The notes beneath the pieces are model-generated. The model worked only from the letters and a program-made list of their open reading frames with translations, made no database searches and had not been told where the DNA came from. A stretch of 64,000 nt of DNA from Patescibacteria group bacterium (GTDB lineage Bacteria; Patescibacteriota; Patescibacteriia; JAXHNJ01): NCBI GenBank assembly GCA_043812155.1, contig JBDRMK010000030.1, positions 8,407-72,406 on the forward strand, read 5' to 3'. Position numbers and translations under genes: made by a program. Shown one piece after another: positions 3,033 to 59,898 of this stretch (positions within the stretch are counted from its first letter, which is position 1; each line of letters begins with the position of its first letter).

Positions 3033-6018
<2,986 letters not shown>

Positions 6019-6982: not shown

Positions 6983-7301
6983 GGTAAAAAATGTTAAAAT
7001 ATTGTTGGATAGTAAACGACACAGTCCTTGGTTAGCCTTCGACCTGGCTCAGGCCAGGCGGCTAGGGACGGTTGAAATCTGGAGTATCGATCAGCTAGGA
7101 TGTCTGTTCGTTACGGCGATAGACAGTGTGCTTCGATACATCCCACATGAAGATACTTGGTACAGCGTATTAGCGGAGTCAATGCTCCCGAATACAATAC
7201 AACCCAGAGAGTAATTCATCCCTTGATAAGCTCGGGGATGACCCTGAGCGAAGTCCAAGGGTCAATGGGTGGTGGAATAGATGGTACGCTGTACATTGTG
7301 G

Positions 7302-7434
7302 CGGCCCTGCTGTGCGGCGCGACGGTAAGCTCAACCGGGCGTATGTCAATGGCAACGAGGATGGCGTGAACCTGAACTGGAACTGGACCGAGAATCGCTG
7401 GAATCGGAACTGCCGGTTCGTGGTCGCCTGCCAG
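7302..7434 (+). repeat. DGR template repeat (TR)
   Basis: Adenine-rich counterpart of VR (AAC/AAT codons where VR is variable); translated in the VR frame gives N-rich RRDGKLNRAYVNGNEDGVNLNWNWTENRWNRNC. Confidence 0.85.
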
Positions 7435-7449
7435 TCTCTTCTTGTCTTG

Positions 7450-7480
7450 CCCCTCCGGTTAGGCTGGAGGGGTTTTGTTT
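7450..7480 (+). terminator. Hairpin plus T-tract just after TR (overlaps 3' end of avd on opposite strand)
   Basis: CCCCTCC-GGTTAGGCT-GGAGGGG followed by TTTTGTTT. Confidence 0.4.
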
Positions 7481-7869
7481 ACCAGCTGTTTTCTCCAGCC
7501 GCCGAGCATTCTACCTGCTTCAACTAGCGGCTCTATTAACAGAGTGTACTTCTTGGTATCAATAACTTTTAATTCCCAGGCCAAGCGCAAAAAAAACTTT
7601 AAAGCGTCCAGCTTAACCGAAGCTCGGCTGATAATCGGTTGTTTTCCGTCTCGGGAGGCGTAGCCCGCCTCAAGGATTAATTCAAGAATATCGCAGAACA
7701 GGGCGTCTATCTTCTGCCCGAGGGTATAGCGGGAGAGCCGGGGAAGTTGCGGGAGTCCGGCGTGCCAAGTTTTATAAATATCAGCAAGTTTATGAAGAAT
7801 GGGAATATCGTCAAAAACCCGTCGGGGGGGGGGGGTGACATTAAAAGAGTTAAAACGCGGTTGAGGCAT
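7459..7869 (-). CDS. avd: DGR accessory variability determinant (Avd), four-helix-bundle protein
   Basis: Colinear similarity to Bordetella phage bAvd (LGQ..., LDALKFFLRLA vs LAMLRFWLRFLA, EAGRMLGGWRKQLVNK vs EVGRILGSWIARVNRK); lies between TR and RT but on the minus strand. Confidence 0.8.
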   Translation of the reverse strand: MPQPRFNSFNVTPPPRRVFDDIPILHKLADIYKTWHAGLPQLPRLSRYTLGQKIDALFCDILELILEAGYASRDGKQPIISRASVKLDALKFFLRLAWELKVIDTKKYTLLIEPLVEAGRMLGGWRKQLVNKTPPA

Positions 7870-15307: not shown

Positions 15308-16645
15308 ATGGCTAATCAGAAACAATCTATTATGGATAAATTAACTTCTCTCTGCAAAAGAAGGGGTTTTATTTTTCCTTCGTCAGAGAAATACGGCGGC
15401 CTGCAGGGTTTTTGGGACTGGGGCCCTTTGGGCGTGGAATTAAAGAATAACATTAAGAAGGCTTGGTGGAAGCGTTTTGTCCAAAGCCGGAAAGACATGG
15501 TCGGTTTGGACGCGGCCATCATCACTAATCCTAAGGTTTGGGAAATAAGCGGGCATGTGGCCGGATTTGCCGATTTATTAGTTGAATGTAAAAGATGTCA
15601 TAAAAGATTTAAGGATGAAGCGCAAAAAGCCTGTCCGGAATGCAGCGGTGATTTAACAGAAGCAAGAAAATTTAACACTATGTTTAAGACTTTTGTCGGC
15701 CCGGTGGAAGATACTAATTCGACTGCCTATCTTCGCCCGGAAACCGCCCAGAATATTTTTGTGAATTTTGAGAACATTTTAACTTCTTCCCGTGTAAAAA
15801 TTCCTTTCGGCATCGCCCAGATTGGCAAATCATTCAGAAACGAAATCACACCGGGAAATTTTATTTTCCGTTCCCGCGAATTTGAACAGATGGAAATTGA
15901 GTTTTTTGTCAATCCCAAAGAAGACGAAAAATGGTACAAATACTGGATTGAGGAATCCGAAAAATGGTTTCTGGATCTGGGGATCAAAAAAGAAAATTTA
16001 AAAAGAAGGCCGCAGGCAAAAGATGAGCTGGCCCATTACGCCAAAGCGACCACGGACCTGGAATATAATTGGCCGTTCTCCGCCCATGGCGGATCCGCCT
16101 CGGGCGGAGATAAAGGCTTTAGCGAACTTATCGGCATTGCCAATCGCACGGATTATGATTTGAAAGCCCACGGATTTAAATACAAGGATGAAAAAGGCGA
16201 ATTTATTCCTTATGTGATTGAACCTTCATTCGGCGTGGAAAGGCCGGCTTTGGCTTTTCTTCTGGACGCTTATGAAGAAATCAAAGGCGGCCGGACCACC
16301 ACGACGGAAAGTACCAAAGAAGAAGAAGTGGTTTTGCGCCTGCACAAAGACTTAGCTCCGATCAAAGTGGCGGTTCTGCCTTTATCCAAGAAAGAGCCGG
16401 TAGCCAAAGTGGCGAACGATATTTATGACACTTTACGGCCGCGTTTCATGACCGCTTATGACGAAGTCGCTTCCATTGGCCGCCGCTATCGCCGTCAGGA
16501 TGAGATCGGCACGCCGTATTGCGTGACCATTGATTTTGATTCCTTGGAAGACAAGAAGGTTACGGTTAGAGACAGAGATACGATGAAACAGGAGAGGATC
16601 GCTATTAATGATTTAGTGGCTTATTTACAGGGGAAGTTTGAATAA
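15308..16645 (+). CDS. glyQS: Glycyl-tRNA synthetase (dimeric archaeal/eukaryotic-type class II)
   Basis: N-terminal RRGFIFPSSEKYGGLQGFWDWGPLGVELKNN, class II motifs, C-terminal anticodon-binding domain. Confidence 0.9.
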   Translation: MANQKQSIMDKLTSLCKRRGFIFPSSEKYGGLQGFWDWGPLGVELKNNIKKAWWKRFVQSRKDMVGLDAAIITNPKVWEISGHVAGFADLLVECKRCHKRFKDEAQKACPECSGDLTEARKFNTMFKTFVGPVEDTNSTAYLRPETAQNIFVNFENILTSSRVKIPFGIAQIGKSFRNEITPGNFIFRSREFEQMEIEFFVNPKEDEKWYKYWIEESEKWFLDLGIKKENLKRRPQAKDELAHYAKATTDLEYNWPFSAHGGSASGGDKGFSELIGIANRTDYDLKAHGFKYKDEKGEFIPYVIEPSFGVERPALAFLLDAYEEIKGGRTTTTESTKEEEVVLRLHKDLAPIKVAVLPLSKKEPVAKVANDIYDTLRPRFMTAYDEVASIGRRYRRQDEIGTPYCVTIDFDSLEDKKVTVRDRDTMKQERIAINDLVAYLQGKFE

Positions 16646-22698: not shown

Positions 22699-22774
22699 CT
22701 TATTTAGTTGAAAATTCGAATATCTAAATCCTAAATCCTAAACAAATATCAATATTAAAATTACAAATCCGAAA

Positions 22775-22804
22775 CCCCGTTTAGAAATGCGATTTCTAAC
22801 GGGG
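22775..22804. promoter_or_regulatory. Palindromic operator-like element upstream of tatD, nested in larger AT-rich inverted repeat (22724-22868)
   Basis: CCCCGTTTAGAAAT-GCG-ATTTCTAACGGGG; same half-sites recur at 51826-51881. Confidence 0.45.
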
Positions 22805-22876
22805 AAACCGGTTTGAAAAATTGGTGCTTAGAATTTGTTTAGAATTTAGAAATTAGAATTTAGGATTTAAAGAAAT

Positions 22877-29721: not shown

Positions 29722-29878
29722 CAATACTCTCCCTTCTGTTTCGGTTCCCTTTTCAAGACCACGATTAAATGAGCGGAAAACTAGCGATAAATCTTAGCAC
29801 TTTGGATGTTATTTGTCAAGGGTTTATTTTACCAAAAAACAGCCCCAATCGACTTAAGGCTGTTTGTTTAGTATTTTT

Positions 29879-30509: not shown

Positions 30510-30603
30510 GATTGGTTAGTTAGTTTGTATTAGACAGTAGACAATAGACATTTGACACGAAACTTTAAGAATTGTCTTATTGTCGATTGTCTTCATGTCT
30601 TAA
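30510..30603. repeat. AGACAAT-type palindromic repeat element (intergenic ntpD/ntpB)
   Basis: TAGACAGTAGACAATAGACATTTGACAC ... inverted GAATTGTCTTATTGTCGATTGTCTTCATGTCT; related copies at 33784-33862 and in-frame in pheS at 55033-55061. Confidence 0.5.
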
Positions 30604-31983
30604 TTAAACTTTGGGCAGATATTTTTCAATATATACTTCTTTAACACGCTTGAGCTCTGAACGCGGCAGGATAGATAAAAGTTTCCAGCCCAGGTCCAGA
30701 GTTTGGATTATCGTCCGGTCTTCATTCAGCCCCTGCCGGACGAATTTATCCTCAAATTCATCCGCGAATTTAGAGAATTTTTTATCGTCTTCTGAGAGGG
30801 CCGCTTCGCCCAAAATAACGGCCAGCTCTTTGGCTTCTTTGCCCCGGGCGTAGGCGGCGAACAATTGGTTTAAGACGCCGGCATGGTCTTCGCGGGTTTT
30901 TCCTTCACCAATGCCTTTGTCTTTCAAGCGGGAAAGTGAGGGCAGGACATCCACGGGGGGATAAATGCCTTTGCGGTGGAGTTCCCGGGAAAGCAGGATC
31001 TGTCCTTCAGTAATATAGCCGGTTAAATCAGGAATGGGATGGGTTTTGTCGTCTTCCGGCATGGTTAAGATGGGAATCTGAGTAATGGAGCCTTTTTTGC
31101 CTTTGATCCGGCCGGCTCGTTCTTAAATCGTGGAAAGATCGGTGTAGAGATAGCCGGGATAGCCGCGGCGACCGGGGATTTCTTTGCGGGCGGCGGAGAT
31201 CTCGCGCAGGGCTTCGCAGTAGTTGGTCATGTCGGTCATAATAACAAGGACATGCAGGTTTTTTTCAAAAGCCAGATATTCGGCCGTGGTCAGGGCGATG
31301 CGGGGCAGGGTTATGCGTTCTACCACCGGATCATCGGCTAAATTGACGAAAAGCACGGCCCGGGCAATGGCGCCGGTCGCTTTGAATTCATTGATGAAAT
31401 ATTCGGATTCTTCAAAAGTGATGCCCATGGCGCAAAAAACCACGGCGAATTCCGATTTTTCCCCTTGGCCGATCACCTTTGCTTGCCGGGCGATCTGACT
31501 GGCCAGGGCAGAATGGGGTAGACCGGAGCCGGAAAAAATGGGAAGCTTCTGGCCGCGCACCAGGGTGTTAAGCCCGTCAATCGTGGAAATGCCCGTTTGA
31601 ATAAAATCATTGGGATAATCGCGGGCAAAAGGGTTGATCGGCGAGCCATTAATGTCTAGTTTCTTTTCCGGGATGATTTTCGGGCCGCCGTCTCTGGGGT
31701 TGCCTGACCCGGAAAAAACCCGGCCGAGCATGTCGGAAGATACGCCGATCTCCATGGTTTTTCCCAAAAATTTCGCTTTGGTGTTTTCTACCTGCAGTCC
31801 CCGAGTTTCTTCAAACATTTGGACTATTGCGGATTTTTCTGAAATTTCCAAGACCCGGCCCCGTCTTTTTTCTCCGGACGGCAATTCCACTTCCACCATT
31901 TCCTGGTATTTCACGCCTTCAACTCCTTCAACAATCAAGAGGGGGCCGGCGATCTCTTTTATGGTTTTATATTCTTTTAACAT
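30604..31983 (-). pseudogene. ntpB: V-type ATP synthase subunit B interrupted by one in-frame TAA (plus-strand TTA at 31123-31125)
   Basis: Two same-frame ORFs (286 aa + 152 aa) together span full B subunit; stop replaces the conserved Tyr in ...DLSTI[Y][29 protein letters not shown]. Confidence 0.75.
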
Positions 31984-33783: not shown

Positions 33784-33862
33784 TAGACAATTGACAGTAG
33801 ACAATAGGATATAAGTCTAACATTCCTGTCTAATGTCAAATGTCTATTTTCTAATGTCCTAT
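33784..33862. repeat. AGACAAT-type palindromic repeat element (intergenic ntpA/ntpF)
   Basis: TTAGACAATTGACAGTAGACAATAGGA ... TCCTGTCTAATGTCAAATGTCTA inverted arms. Confidence 0.5.
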
Positions 33863-38586: not shown

Positions 38587-38762
38587 AAATTGGGCTAAAT
38601 ATTAAAAAATCAAGTTTCTATTATACTGTTTTTTATATAAAAAATCAAGGGGAATCATGTGGATAAGTGATTCATTGGTAAATTTAGCTTATTTTAGGGA
38701 AAAAGTCTACCCCCTTTAAAAATTTATTGGCTTATTATAGCAAAAAAATATATAATATAGGT

Positions 38763-39461
38763 ATGAATTTACGAAAAATATACCGTCAATTATCGCAAAA
38801 ATACGGTCCTCAGGACTGGTGGCCTCTGTTAGATATCAAGATGTTGAGATATCGAGATATTTCCGCCCGAGGCGGACCGGCCTTGGGCCGGAAGATATCA
38901 AGAAAGAAAATTAAGGTATTTTCTGAGAAAAACATGTTTGAGGTCTGCCTGGGCGCGATCTTGACCCAGAATACGAATTGGAAAAATGTGGAGAAAGCCA
39001 TTTTAAATTTAAAAAGAAAAAAAATATTATCCCCAAGAAAAATATTAAATACGCCGCCAGGTAAATTAAGGGGGCTAATTCGTTCTTCCGGCTATTACAA
39101 TGAAAAAACCAAAAAGCTTATGACATATAGCTTATGGCTTATGGATAATTATAAGGGAAGTTTAAAGAAATTTTTTAAGCAATCATTAAAAAAGTGCCGC
39201 GAAGAATTGCTGGCGGTCCATGGCATCGGGCCGGAAACTGCCGACTCAATTTTATTATATGCCGGCCGCAAACCTTCTTTTGTCATTGACGCCTATACCA
39301 GGAGACTTTGTAAAAAATACGGAGTGGAATTCAAGACGTATGACGAGTACAAAGAATATTTTGAAAAGCGTTTGCCAAAGTCGTATAAATTGTATAATGA
39401 ATTCCACGCGCTGATTGTGCAATGGGGTAAGAATAATTCTTCAATCAGGAAGGTAGACTGA
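38763..39461 (+). CDS. HhH-GPD DNA glycosylase (endonuclease III-like) with in-frame repeat-element insertion
   Basis: GAILTQNTNWKNVEKAI, LxxLxGIGPETADSILLYA HhH-GPD motif; residues ~25-60 (LLDIKMLRYRDISARGGPALGRKISRKK) encoded by a dispersed repeat. Confidence 0.75.
   Translation: MNLRKIYRQLSQKYGPQDWWPLLDIKMLRYRDISARGGPALGRKISRKKIKVFSEKNMFEVCLGAILTQNTNWKNVEKAILNLKRKKILSPRKILNTPPGKLRGLIRSSGYYNEKTKKLMTYSLWLMDNYKGSLKKFFKQSLKKCREELLAVHGIGPETADSILLYAGRKPSFVIDAYTRRLCKKYGVEFKTYDEYKEYFEKRLPKSYKLYNEFHALIVQWGKNNSSIRKVD
38829..38915. repeat. Dispersed repeat: GATATCAAGAT-type AT repeat plus tandem GC triloop hairpins, inside glycosylase ORF
   Basis: TAGATATCAAGATGTTGAGATATCGAGATATT + CCGCC-CGA-GGCGG ACC GGCC-TTG-GGCCGG; related copies at 59741-59850 and 50355-50470 (reverse). 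Confidence 0.6.
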
Positions 39462-47929: not shown

Positions 47930-48017
47930 TAAAATATTAACAAGGCGATTTTTGGAAATTTGCGAGTTTAGGGTTGTTTGAGATGTCCAGATGTCTAGAT
48001 ATCAAGATATCGAGACA

Positions 48018-48380
48018 TCAAGATTTTTTGGCTAAACCGCTGATCATGCAATTTAGGCCAATGGCCAGGCCATTGTAGCTTTCGTCGATGACTTTGAAGT
48101 TTTCCTCTGGCAGGTATTTCTGATCCAAGGCGATCCTCAAATGGCTTTCAATTTCAAAAATTTCCGCCCGTGCAATATAAAGCACGCGGATTTTATCTTT
48201 GGGATGGTATCGGCCGTGGCTTTCCGCGATATTAGCTGCCACCGATACCGCCGATCTTCTTAACTGCATAGTTAAGCCGAAAATCTCGTTTTTCGGGAAA
48301 GCCTTGGTGATTTGGTAAATTTGGCTGGCAAGCGCCTGGGCTTTTTGCCAGACTTTTAAATCAAAAAAAGCGCGAGTCAT
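48018..48380 (-). CDS. Four-helix-bundle protein (Avd/23S-rRNA-IVS protein family, TIGR02436-like)
   Basis: DLKVWQKAQALASQIYQITKAFPKNEIFGLTMQLRRSAVSVAANIAES; flanked by inverted GATATCGAGA/CATCAAGAT repeats (47978-48016, 48447-48485). Confidence 0.8.
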   Translation of the reverse strand: MTRAFFDLKVWQKAQALASQIYQITKAFPKNEIFGLTMQLRRSAVSVAANIAESHGRYHPKDKIRVLYIARAEIFEIESHLRIALDQKYLPEENFKVIDESYNGLAIGLNCMISGLAKKS

Positions 48381-48496
48381 ATATATCCTTTCGCGCCACC
48401 ATTTTGTCTGTAATTATTTTATATTCGTTTATTAATTTTGTCAACGTCACCTCTCGATATCTTGACATCTTGACCTCTCGATATCTAAAACCATCC

Positions 48497-50354: not shown

Positions 50355-50470
50355 TTTCGGCCCAAGGCCGACCCGCCTCGGGCGGGAAGTTGTTTAATTA
50401 TTGAGAAATTGAGAGGATTTAGGAATTAATAATTTGTTTAGGATTTAGAATATAGAGTTTAGGATTTGCG
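50355..50470. repeat. Dispersed repeat copy (reverse orientation): tandem GC triloop hairpins plus TTTAGGATTTAGAAT-type AT repeats
   Basis: CGGCC-CAA-GGCCG ACC CGCC-TCG-GGCGGG is reverse complement of the 38866-38900 copy with compensatory changes. Confidence 0.55.
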
Positions 50471-54179: not shown

Positions 54180-54563
54180 ATGCTTTTAAAAAAGTACCTT
54201 ATTTTAATGATTATTGCCACCTTTGTTGCTTGGATTTCGCTCGGCGCGGTCATTTTTACCATGAGCCCGGAAGCCGGCCTGCTTTCCCTGATGCTTTTTT
54301 ACGGCACCCTGTTCCTTTCCCTGCTGGGCAGTTTTTTCCTGCTGGGTTTTCTTTTTAGATATATTTTTCAAAGAAATATCCCTCTTTTCCGGCACTTGGG
54401 GATTTCTTTCCGGCAGGGTCTGCTTTTTACCATTTTAGTCGTTGGTTCTCTGGTTTTGCAGGCGGCATCCTATTTACGATGGTGGAATTTAATCTTATTT
54501 TTTATTTTTTTGGTAATTTTGGAATTTTTCTTTTCTTTGCAGAAAAAAAATTATGGAAGATAA
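54180..54563 (+). CDS. Hypothetical membrane protein (127 aa)
   Basis: Four hydrophobic helices; overlaps pheS start. Confidence 0.4.
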   Translation: MLLKKYLILMIIATFVAWISLGAVIFTMSPEAGLLSLMLFYGTLFLSLLGSFFLLGFLFRYIFQRNIPLFRHLGISFRQGLLFTILVVGSLVLQAASYLRWWNLILFFIFLVILEFFFSLQKKNYGR

Positions 54564-55593
54564 GTTAAAAAATATTTTAAATCAGGCCAAGACCGAGATT
54601 TCAACGGCGAAGTGTTCGGCGGATTTGGCTTTTCTTCAAAATAAGTTTTTAGGCCGGAAAGGGGAGCTTTCCCTGATCTTGCGCGGGATTAAGGACTTGT
54701 CCAAAGAAGAAAAGCCGAAGATCGGGCGCTTGGGCAATGAGATCAGGAAAGAAATAGAAAATTTATTCTCGCAGACGCAAAACCGGTTTTCCGGTCCGGA
54801 AGAAAAATCAGAAAATATTGATCTGACCTTGCCGGGCGTGAAAATTCGTGAGGGCAGTCTGCACCCGCTGACCTTGTTTTTAAGAAAAACCATCGATATA
54901 TTCGTCCGCATGGGTTTTGAGGTCGTGCCGGGGCCGGAACTGGAGGAAGCGAAATACAATTTTGACCTATTGAATATTCCTAAAGATCATCCGGCGCGCG
55001 ACGTTTGGGATACGTTTTATGTGACGGGACAGAAGACATTAGACAGTAGACATAAGACAAGTGATTTGTTGTTAAGAACTCATACCTCGCCCATGCAGAT
55101 TCGGGCCATGGAAAAAAGAAAACCGCCGGTGCGTTTAATCGTGCCCGGCCGGGTCTTCCGACATGAAGCCACGGACGCGGGGCATGAAACGACTTTTTAC
55201 CAGGTGGAAGGCCTGGTTATTGATAAAGATATAAAAATTACTGATTTAATAGGGACGATAAAAATTTTCCTACAAAGTCTTTTCGGCAAACAGGTGAAGA
55301 CTCGAGTGAGGCCGCATTTTTACGCTTTTACCGAGCCGTCTATGGATTTTGATATGAGTTGTTTACTTTGCGGAGGCAAGGGTTGCTCGGTTTGCGGCCA
55401 GTCAGGCTGGCTGGAGATGATGGGCTCGGGCATGGTCCATCCGAAAGTTCTGAAAAATATGAAAGTGGATCCTCAGAAGTTCACCGGCTTTGCCTTTGGC
55501 ATGGGAATAGACCGCTTTATGATGCTTTATTACGGAATTGATGACATAAGACTTTCTTACCAGAACGATTTACGCTTTTTAAAACAATTTTAG
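54553..55593 (+). CDS. pheS: Phenylalanyl-tRNA synthetase alpha subunit
   Basis: Class II motif 2 FRHEATDAGHETTFYQVEG, motif 3 GFAFGMGIDRFMMLYYGIDDIR; apparent ~10-aa in-frame repeat-derived insert (QKTLDSRHKTSD) at 55033-55061. Confidence 0.9.
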   Translation: MEDKLKNILNQAKTEISTAKCSADLAFLQNKFLGRKGELSLILRGIKDLSKEEKPKIGRLGNEIRKEIENLFSQTQNRFSGPEEKSENIDLTLPGVKIREGSLHPLTLFLRKTIDIFVRMGFEVVPGPELEEAKYNFDLLNIPKDHPARDVWDTFYVTGQKTLDSRHKTSDLLLRTHTSPMQIRAMEKRKPPVRLIVPGRVFRHEATDAGHETTFYQVEGLVIDKDIKITDLIGTIKIFLQSLFGKQVKTRVRPHFYAFTEPSMDFDMSCLLCGGKGCSVCGQSGWLEMMGSGMVHPKVLKNMKVDPQKFTGFAFGMGIDRFMMLYYGIDDIRLSYQNDLRFLKQF

Positions 55594-55756
55594 GGCTATA
55601 GCCCACATTGTCATGCTGAGGAGCCCTGAGTAGTGCCGAAGGGCGTCTCGAAGCATAGACAATGTGACTGTTTACAGGCGTCACCCTTCCCTTCGCTGCG
55701 ACTCAGGGCAGGCTACGGCTTCGCGCATCCTGAGCCGGGACGAAGGACAGGGTGAC
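55593..55756. repeat. GC-rich structured intergenic element between pheS and pheT (two palindromic units)
   Basis: GGGCTATAGCCC; CACATTGTC...GACAATGTG 9-bp stem enclosing CTGAGGAGC...CGAAGGG; second unit GTCACCCT...AGGGTGAC (55680-55756) related to the GIY-YIG flanking palindromes. Confidence 0.5.
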
Positions 55757-55799
55757 AGCGAAAAATAAGGTTTTTAATATAGTTTTAAACTTAAAAACT

Positions 55800-56030
55800 A
55801 TGGGAGTAGAAAATTCAGACTTTCCGCCGCCGCTGTTTGAACGATTAAAAAGACCTTTCTTATTGAACATACTGGTGATCATCAGCTTTATCGCCGTGAT
55901 CATCCTCAGCGTGATGACCTATTTTTTCTTGCCCAAATACGTATACATTGTTAATATTGGTTTTCCCGTTTATTTATTCCTTATTTTTCTTATTTATGTG
56001 TGCTGGCATCAAAAACATCCGTCCAAGTAA
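55800..56030 (+). CDS. Small hypothetical membrane protein
   Basis: Track ORF 55752..56030; 5' part overlaps GC-rich repeat, start probably MGVENSDF; two TM helices. Confidence 0.35.
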   Translation: MGVENSDFPPPLFERLKRPFLLNILVIISFIAVIILSVMTYFFLPKYVYIVNIGFPVYLFLIFLIYVCWHQKHPSK

Positions 56031-56044
56031 TTTAAAAGATAAAC

Positions 56045-59740: not shown

Positions 59741-59850
59741 TTAGATATCAAGATATTTGCGCCCGAGGCGCACCCGCCTTGGGCGGGGAGCGATTAAGAT
59801 ATTAAGATATTGTCCGCCAAAGGCGGATCAGCCTCTGGCTGAAGATATTT
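59741..59850. repeat. Dispersed repeat copy: GATATCAAGATATT + GC triloop hairpins + GATTAAGATATTAAGATATT + further hairpins
   Basis: GCGCC-CGA-GGCGC ACC CGCC-TTG-GGCGGG; TCCGCC-AAA-GGCGGA; TCAGCC-TCT-GGCTGA. Confidence 0.55.
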
Positions 59851-59898
59851 AGAGGCTAAGAAAAAATTATATATTATACATTATTAATTATAAATTAA

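Follow-up and report, generated by a model that had tools for sequence, protein, structure and literature searches.

An in-frame AGACA heptanucleotide array in pheS of a Patescibacteria genome and related palindromes in its V-ATPase operon

The gene for the alpha subunit of phenylalanine-tRNA ligase (pheS) in a Patescibacteria group bacterium contains a short array of heptanucleotide repeats that is translated in frame within a surface loop of the enzyme. Our analyses support the view that this array is a DNA-level heptanucleotide repeat, with the same type of unit as two elements in spacers of the V-ATPase operon. All three lie within the 64,000-nucleotide stretch that we analyzed, hereafter the window. 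Below, we describe the array and its host gene, survey the intergenic elements and other repeats, and compare relatives, and then weigh how the array may have originated and been maintained.

The pheS array and its host gene

The pheS gene is intact (54553..55593, plus strand) and encodes a protein of 346 aa with complete Pfam matches to tRNA-synt_2d (PF01409, 2.8e-96) and Phe_tRNA-synt_N (PF02912). All of the conserved PheS motif residues are retained, and the protein is 100% identical to one from an NCBI "Patescibacteria group bacterium" MAG. The array, GGACAGA AGACATT AGACAGT AGACATA AGACA, occupies 55027..55059 on the plus strand, where its 33 nt make up 11 codons that encode GQKTLDSRHKT. 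A degenerate fifth unit (GGACAGA, 55027–55033) stands upstream of four exact AGACA cores, which at 55034–55061 read AGACATT AGACAGT AGACATA AGACAAG. The initial annotation had reported the repeat at 55033–55061; its sequence was right, its start was one base early, and the extra unit at 55027–55033 is to be added.

The array-encoded peptide, GQKTLDSRHKT (followed by SD), is flanked in PheS by DVWDTFYV and LLLRTHTSP. The proposed placement of the repeat, read in frame between DVWDTFYV and LLRTHTSP of an essential gene that is intact, agrees with the ORF, the Pfam matches, and a gap of 11 residues in PheS chains of known structure; in phmmer alignments of P. aeruginosa (4p71), S. haemolyticus (2rhq), and E. 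coli (6oz5) PheS, the gap falls exactly opposite GQKTLDSRHKT (nt 55027–55059). An AlphaFold2 model based on 36 homologues has residues 160–168 as coil with pLDDT <50, between strands at 155–157 and 172–174. The 11 array-encoded residues are hydrophilic and, as an insertion in a surface loop, probably disordered.

The length of this loop varies from 4 to 37 aa among 104 Patescibacteria PheS and peaks at 4 and 10, with a tail that reaches 37. The 4-aa loop, which represents the empty site, is found in solved PheS of model bacteria and in 24 of the 104 Patescibacteria proteins. All close relatives of the window pheS have expanded loops (13–28 aa), and none of them has an empty site; a metagenome scan for pheS relatives yielded only two close ones. 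T. thermophilus PheS has 19 residues at the array position (LTGEGFRLEGPLGEEVEGR). The earlier statement that PheS proteins have only a few residues here is thus correct for E. coli, P. aeruginosa, Staphylococcus, and many Patescibacteria (4 aa), and does not extend to T. thermophilus, to the full range of lengths, or to the close relatives.

By TRF, the array has a period of 7 and 3.7 copies, and 7 is also the best period of the loop DNA among periods 3–12 (p<0.0005). With at least three head-to-tail 7-nt copies, the array qualifies as a heptanucleotide long simple-sequence repeat. The pattern AGACANNAGACANNAGACA, allowing ≤1 mismatch, is found at only three loci in the 64-kb window (30532–30557, 33785–33845, and 55027–55059) and has 0 matches in 100 dinucleotide-preserving shuffles of the window. 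The AGACA repeats are therefore dispersed and multi-copy, with three loci in 64 kb versus 0 expected. In addition, the 15-mer ATTAGACAGTAGACA is common to the element at 30529 and the pheS array (55038). Because 2.2% of random 35-nt contig windows also share a ≥15-mer elsewhere (empirical p ~0.02 for ATTAGACAGTAGACA), this match alone is weak evidence of a family link for the array.

The counterpart of the pheS array in the hairpin elements of the V-ATPase spacers is their 5′ arm, which is AGACA-sense. The array region has no inverted partner and no TGTCT arm, and its RNA fold (z +0.55) indicates no structure, so the pheS copy is a single arm rather than the palindromic element itself. Promoter and terminator scans around the pheS array and the V-ATPase elements gave nothing beyond shuffles, and no Rfam family was matched at gathering thresholds anywhere in the window. 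We also considered an assembly artefact as the source of the array and ruled it out, as pheS carries this array in two further assemblies of independent origin, L001 (Logan) and L005 (JGI).

Intergenic AGACA elements and other repeats

The V-ATPase operon contains two AGACA-heptad palindromes, identified by sequence and folding: one in the B–D spacer (30529..30602, with arms at 30529–30557 and 30571–30602) and one in the F–A spacer (33784..33861). On the operon (minus) strand, both run from AGACA-type heptads through a loop to TGTCT-type heptads and form imperfect hairpins. The hairpin at 30529–30602 folds at −21 to −25 kcal/mol (z −3.7 to −3.8, both strands), and that at 33784–33861 has a z of −4.4. 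Both palindromes that had been described as built from the pheS motif are indeed present, with fold z of −3.7 to −4.4. We checked them by folding; a generic inverted-repeat finder missed them because their arms pair out of register. Both are convergent array pairs, on opposite strands with a stem-loop, which the pheS copy is not. They are not canonical promoters or terminators, and they match no Rfam family.

Both V-ATPase elements begin exactly at cistron ends. The stop codon of F, TAG (33861–33859), is the first TAG of the F–A element and is supplied by the element's last unit, and the stop codon of B, TAA (30604–30606), directly adjoins the B–D element. When aligned to the empty site of the relative L199, the 75-bp B–D element lies directly 3′ of the B stop, and its ends are AT-rich (TAA/TAAT). 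The presence of the intergenic copies differs between the window and its relatives: L199, in which subunit D is 90% identical, has a B–D spacer of 46 bp and an F–A spacer of 24 bp, both without the element, and L200 has a short degenerate GGACA/AGACA palindrome in the F–A spacer only. Among the window ORFs examined, no transposase or IS with matching terminal repeats was seen.

Two further features of this operon are recorded here in their own right. The V-ATPase B gene is split by an in-frame TAA at 31123–31125 (minus strand) into ORFs 31123–31983 and 30604–31062. This TAA replaces the Tyr of the conserved LSTIYERAG, and the L199 and L200 orthologues are intact at 470 aa; the split can be explained by a pseudogene, by a sequencing error, or by read-through. 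In the spacer downstream of V-ATPase D (29725–29878), a terminator-like hairpin and a promoter-like TTGACA..TAAGAT pair occur along with a ~70-nt leader that precedes an HD-domain gene. This spacer is near-identical in L201 (667–824), unlike the repeat-bearing spacers, and has no Rfam match; a conserved leader RNA is one possibility for it.

Despite a coding fraction of 0.87, the period-7 and period-8 arrays of the window are almost all intergenic, the exceptions being the pheS and HhH-GPD copies. The initial annotation had proposed that a second repeat family also resides in frame in genes of the window, and we identified one that combines octads with CCGCC-N3-GGCGG mini-hairpins (6 copies of the mini-hairpin in the window vs 0.07 expected). 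The HhH-GPD glycosylase (ORF 38727–39461) has four AGATATnn octads and the mini-hairpin TCCGCCCGAGGCGGA in frame at 38827–38877 (..LLDIKMLRYRDISARGGP..), and its L196 orthologue has TCAAGATA x4.6 at 3290–3326. A class-II tRNA synthetase (ORF 15308–16645; tRNA-synt_2b and HGTP_anticodon) contains two adjoining in-frame mini-hairpins at 16077–16110, which are translated as ..FSAHGGSASGGDK...

Several other repeats and variable regions were observed along the way. A gene of the 23S_rRNA_IVP family (48018–48380, minus strand) lies between two octad arrays in inverted orientation, at 47980–48024 and 48451–48486; in L002, arrays at 7128–7173 and 7598–7631 surround a gene at 7242–7604 in the same arrangement as at window 47980–48486, and in L198, an IVP gene lies between pheS and pheT. 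The window's own pheS–pheT spacer (55594–56044, 451 bp) has nested inverted repeats at 55623–55756 and a 92-aa hydrophobic ORF without a Pfam match. In relatives, this spacer is 11–88 bp (L196, L197, L002) or holds other small inserted genes (L004, L198), and so it looks like a second variable site beside pheS. Finally, TTTAGAA/TTTAGGA heptad arrays occur at 22720–22869 and 50400–50467; those at 22720–22869 are convergent and enclose a perfect GC hairpin (CCCCGTTAGAAAT..ATTTCTAACGGGG), with a fold of −39.5 kcal/mol (z −5.1) for the complete structure.

To see how far the AGACA heptads extend, we can look at both close relatives and more distant genomes. In ~117 kb of related Patescibacteria loci, there are no AGACA arrays of ≥3 units besides those in pheS of L001 and L005. 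Within this sample, the family looks lineage-restricted, and it co-occurs with the pheS array in the window genome. The pattern (AGACANN)x3AGACA is found at ≥120 loci across many phyla (one genome per species) compared to ~1 expected, a rough estimate from the size of the collection. Many of the listed loci are convergent pairs around a GC-rich centre of 40–60 bp, from Acidobacteriota, Armatimonadota, Bacteroidota, Gallionella, and others; the genome of the window is not among the matches listed. We know of no name for this widespread architecture. Examples are the pairs in L033 (1854–1971 and 7176–7288), L059 (3217–3332), L039 (4920–5034), and L057 (2711–2841), which come from Acidobacteriota, Armatimonadota, Gallionella, and Porphyromonadaceae.

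Among the matches listed, 7 of 135 arrays lie in long stop-free frames, three of them with clear Pfam hosts. In L082, a Peribacteria MAG, a full palindrome is translated within a class-I tRNA synthetase (RHETRDTRH...SSLTSQVSSL). L014, an Anaerolineales MAG, has an in-frame AGAC-heptad array in a class-I synthetase, and L118 has one in frame in TGT. All of these arrays are in the AGAC sense and encode K/R/T/D/Q/E; the antisense would give C/L/V/S-rich peptides.

Conservation and variation of the loop in relatives

The array is of equal length in the window and in both L001, whose PheS is 87% identical to the window's (loop GGACAGA AGACAGA AGACAGT AGACAGA AGACAGG), and L005, whose PheS is 94% identical over the part present (loop GGAACGA AGACAGT AGACATT AGACATA AGACAAG). 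Outside the loop, pheS nucleotide identity among the three is 0.80–0.83, and the codons of identical residues are the same in ~60% of cases. Within units 2–5 of the array, none of the 20 AGACA core sites varies versus five of the eight spacer sites (p=5.7e-4, n=3 sequences), and the spacer changes are mostly non-synonymous (L/E/V, S/I, H/Q, S/G). Seven third-codon positions of the cores are invariant against a background of 0.44–0.50 per codon (p ~0.003–0.007, n=3 sequences). With three sequences, we consider this core conservation suggestive rather than conclusive. The core codons are rare in the genome (ACA, 7% of Thr; AAG, 31% of Lys; AGA, 21% of Arg), and the joint probability of the array's codon choice given its peptide is 4.5e-5.

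The bases that precede the cores depend on reading frame. In all three sequences, units whose preceding base occupies codon position 1 have A there (AAG); of the five out-of-frame positions, four retain the T found in the intergenic TAGACA consensus. Three TAGACAN units in succession put a TAG in every frame; in the array, the two units with a potential in-frame TAG read AAG, and the array length is a multiple of three. The immediate flanks of the array show normal divergence between the window, L001, and L005, and thus the array is not a recently exchanged segment. Altogether, the comparison implies that the array is old and has been inherited vertically, predating the split of three lineages that share ~80% nucleotide identity. 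The insertion event in pheS that the initial annotation had assumed is not demonstrated: an empty pheS site is lacking among close relatives, and the array is older than the divergence of the three lineages.

Other close relatives carry unrelated sequences in this loop. The L004 loop consists of TGTCGCC x3, a centre, and AAGCGAA x3, which together form a heptad palindrome, and the L006 loop is a longer form of the same palindrome. In L198 (~58% identical), the loop starts with TCGGACT TCAGACT, continues with two GC mini-hairpins, and ends in a perfect (GAAGACC)x4.3 array; this composite architecture resembles the window's intergenic composites, e.g. 59753–59870. All three loops have a period of 7 (p<0.0005 each). 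The loops of L002, L008, L196, and L197 are of unrelated sequence without periodicity. Judging from these relatives, the PheS motif-1/motif-2 loop is an insertion hotspot for heptad repeats. We considered gene-tree incongruence as a sign of loop replacement and dropped it: the window and L004 group with 95% bootstrap at full length, and the signal for this grouping comes from the first 80 codons and is absent in the 3′ half of pheS.

An in-frame heptad-palindrome insert was also observed outside of pheS, at 3743–3873 in the glutamate racemase gene of L198 (MurI, 3354–4250). The P0061 PheS loop peptide (..KQIQNSNDQNSK) and the L198 MurI insert peptide (..KQIQNPNDQNSK) indicate that one repeat family may be translated in two genes of two genomes.

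Origin of the array and comparison with known systems

We favor, with moderate confidence, a reading in which the pheS array is a simple-sequence array of the AGACA family that was installed at the DNA level in a permissive loop, passed a filter for stop-free, hydrophilic, multiple-of-three sequence, and was then inherited for a long time with its cores kept uniform and its peptide as a passenger. As to its DNA-level origin, one arm of an AGACA element may have been copied or inserted, or a seed may have been lengthened by slippage, in either case leaving the array sense-oriented in the surface loop of variable length that connects the DTFY and LLRTHTS strands. Its stop-free reading, its K/T/D/R/Q/S residues, and its length in a multiple of three would have let it survive and pass vertically into at least three lineages. 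As the spacers and the peptide drifted, the AGACA cores may have stayed identical through selection on the motif or through concerted evolution, be it within arrays or between them. We infer the mode of origin and the role of the peptide as a neutral passenger from these patterns, using an AGACA survey of the window genome that covers 64 kb. Heptads are common in many phyla, and the shared AGACA unit could reflect a general bias rather than copying.

That last point leads to a possible, though in our estimate fairly improbable, alternative: the array may have originated in situ, by slippage from a chance proto-repeat in the loop and independently of the intergenic elements, with AGACA shared through mutational bias and the small number of stop-free hydrophilic units. 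Heptameric simple-sequence repeats are over-represented in bacteria, and slippage is the proposed cause (PMC4679880, PMC4692102). Slippage does operate in the PheS loop, since the perfect (GAAGACC)x4.3 array of L198 must be recent and local; the ≥120 AGACA-heptad loci in many phyla and the exclusively AGAC-sense orientation of the in-frame cases elsewhere also fit a local origin. However, the related Patescibacteria loci that we examined have AGACA arrays in pheS of L001 and L005 alone, besides those of the window, and the out-of-frame positions before the cores retain the T of the TAGACA consensus. Slippage alone also does not make composite or palindromic loops like those of L198, L004, and L006, which resemble the intergenic elements. 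A different alternative, which we consider unlikely, is that AGACA heptads bind a DNA or RNA factor and that selection keeps the pheS array for this reason, e.g. for pheST regulation or a genome-wide structural role. The core bases, including the seven third-codon positions, are invariant despite the rare codons as the spacers change non-synonymously, and the motif recurs at intercistronic positions of the V-ATPase operon. Gene conversion also accounts for the core-versus-spacer pattern, however, and there is no promoter, terminator, or Rfam match, with the pheS mRNA unstructured at the array. The sites are moreover dispensable, because AGACA is missing from pheS of L004 (the closest by gene tree), L002, L008, L196, and L197, and from both L199 spacers. 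A related and similarly speculative proposal, to which we give little weight, is that AGACA heptads are a recognized nucleic-acid motif, either a putative factor binding site or a substrate for repeat homogenization, so that the pheS array would be a dual-coding cis-element that nucleotide-level selection keeps in an essential gene, and the in-frame AGAC arrays in IleRS-like and TGT genes would be part of that system.

The remaining explanation, that the loop peptide was selected as protein and the AGACA periodicity is accidental, is effectively refuted. The loop is hydrophilic and variable in all relatives, as this explanation would have it. The initial annotation had also held that equally long loops of unrelated sequence in relatives would make the similarity coincidental, and L002, L008, L196, and L197 do have such loops. 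Coincidence is still excluded by the period of 7, the rare codons (4.5e-5), and the core conservation; the pattern is absent from shuffles, and the amino acids of the spacer codons are not conserved. Because a 7-nt period cannot arise from selection on a peptide, the array is a DNA-level feature.

In reduced Patescibacteria genomes, short repeat DNA of the intergenic kind is found outside spacers as well. Several genes of core translation and repair contain heptamer arrays or small palindromes that are translated in frame: here PheS, a second class-II synthetase, and HhH-GPD, and at other loci MurI, IleRS-like, and TGT genes. Translated repeats thus create lineage-specific loop insertions, which would otherwise be mistaken for protein-level variation by pipelines for annotation and alignment. 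The combination of conserved cores, drifting spacers, and rare codons offers a small example in which constraint at the nucleotide level, or concerted evolution, can be tested within coding sequence.

Rickettsia palindromic elements (RPEs), which Ogata and colleagues reportedly described in 2000, are selfish DNA that has entered protein-coding genes without disturbing their reading frame. RPEs are covered in MITE reviews (PMC10969869, PMC2229807). Like RPEs, the AGACA repeats form a dispersed family that is found between genes and in frame in essential genes, including aminoacyl-tRNA synthetases, where an extra surface segment leaves the host protein intact; the pheS array resides in frame at such a surface position with the host motifs intact. 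In contrast, RPEs are complex palindromes of 100–150 bp with family-specific sequence, whereas the pheS copy is a one-armed simple repeat of 33 nt with a 7-nt unit and has no empty site among close relatives. The pheS copy is also not palindromic, unlike the loops of L004, L006, L198, and L082. Given its size and simple-repeat nature, sequence homology of the pheS array to RPE families is unlikely.

Heptameric simple-sequence repeats are an over-represented class of long repeats in bacteria, and convergent GGGAATC array pairs are known from Xanthomonas (PMC4692102) and TAACTGA heptamer repeats from Beggiatoaceae (PMC4679880). The AGACA arrays resemble these and the cyanobacterial STRR in having tandem 7-nt units in a few to ~10 copies, in being overwhelmingly intergenic, and in often forming two convergent arrays with stem-loop potential. 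The known repeats differ between relatives in presence and length, and the intergenic AGACA copies in presence. They differ in unit sequence, which is distinct and not G-rich, and in that the known repeats are described as intergenic or ORF-terminating rather than as in-frame and core-conserved in an essential gene. We found no Patescibacteria-specific description of such elements in the open-access literature.

Translated DNA-level repeats have also been described in other systems. Borg elements (PMC9879509) contain tandem repeats in ORFs that add hydrophilic disordered segments, as the pheS array probably does, but Borg units are divisible by three, and the 7-nt pheS unit keeps the frame by total length only. 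The coding palindromes of Nematomorpha mitochondria (PMC6649704) are translated inverted repeats in conserved genes, like those of L004, L006, L198, and L082; the Nematomorpha repeats are long, perfect, and located in organelle genes, whereas the window pheS copy is not palindromic. The solved PheS of T. thermophilus (PDB 1b70, 1pys, 2iy5) is an active enzyme with its 19 residues at the array site, and this site therefore tolerates insertions. Overall, the pheS case joins two known phenomena, a heptamer simple-sequence array and RPE-like in-frame residence in an aminoacyl-tRNA synthetase, with core-specific conservation.
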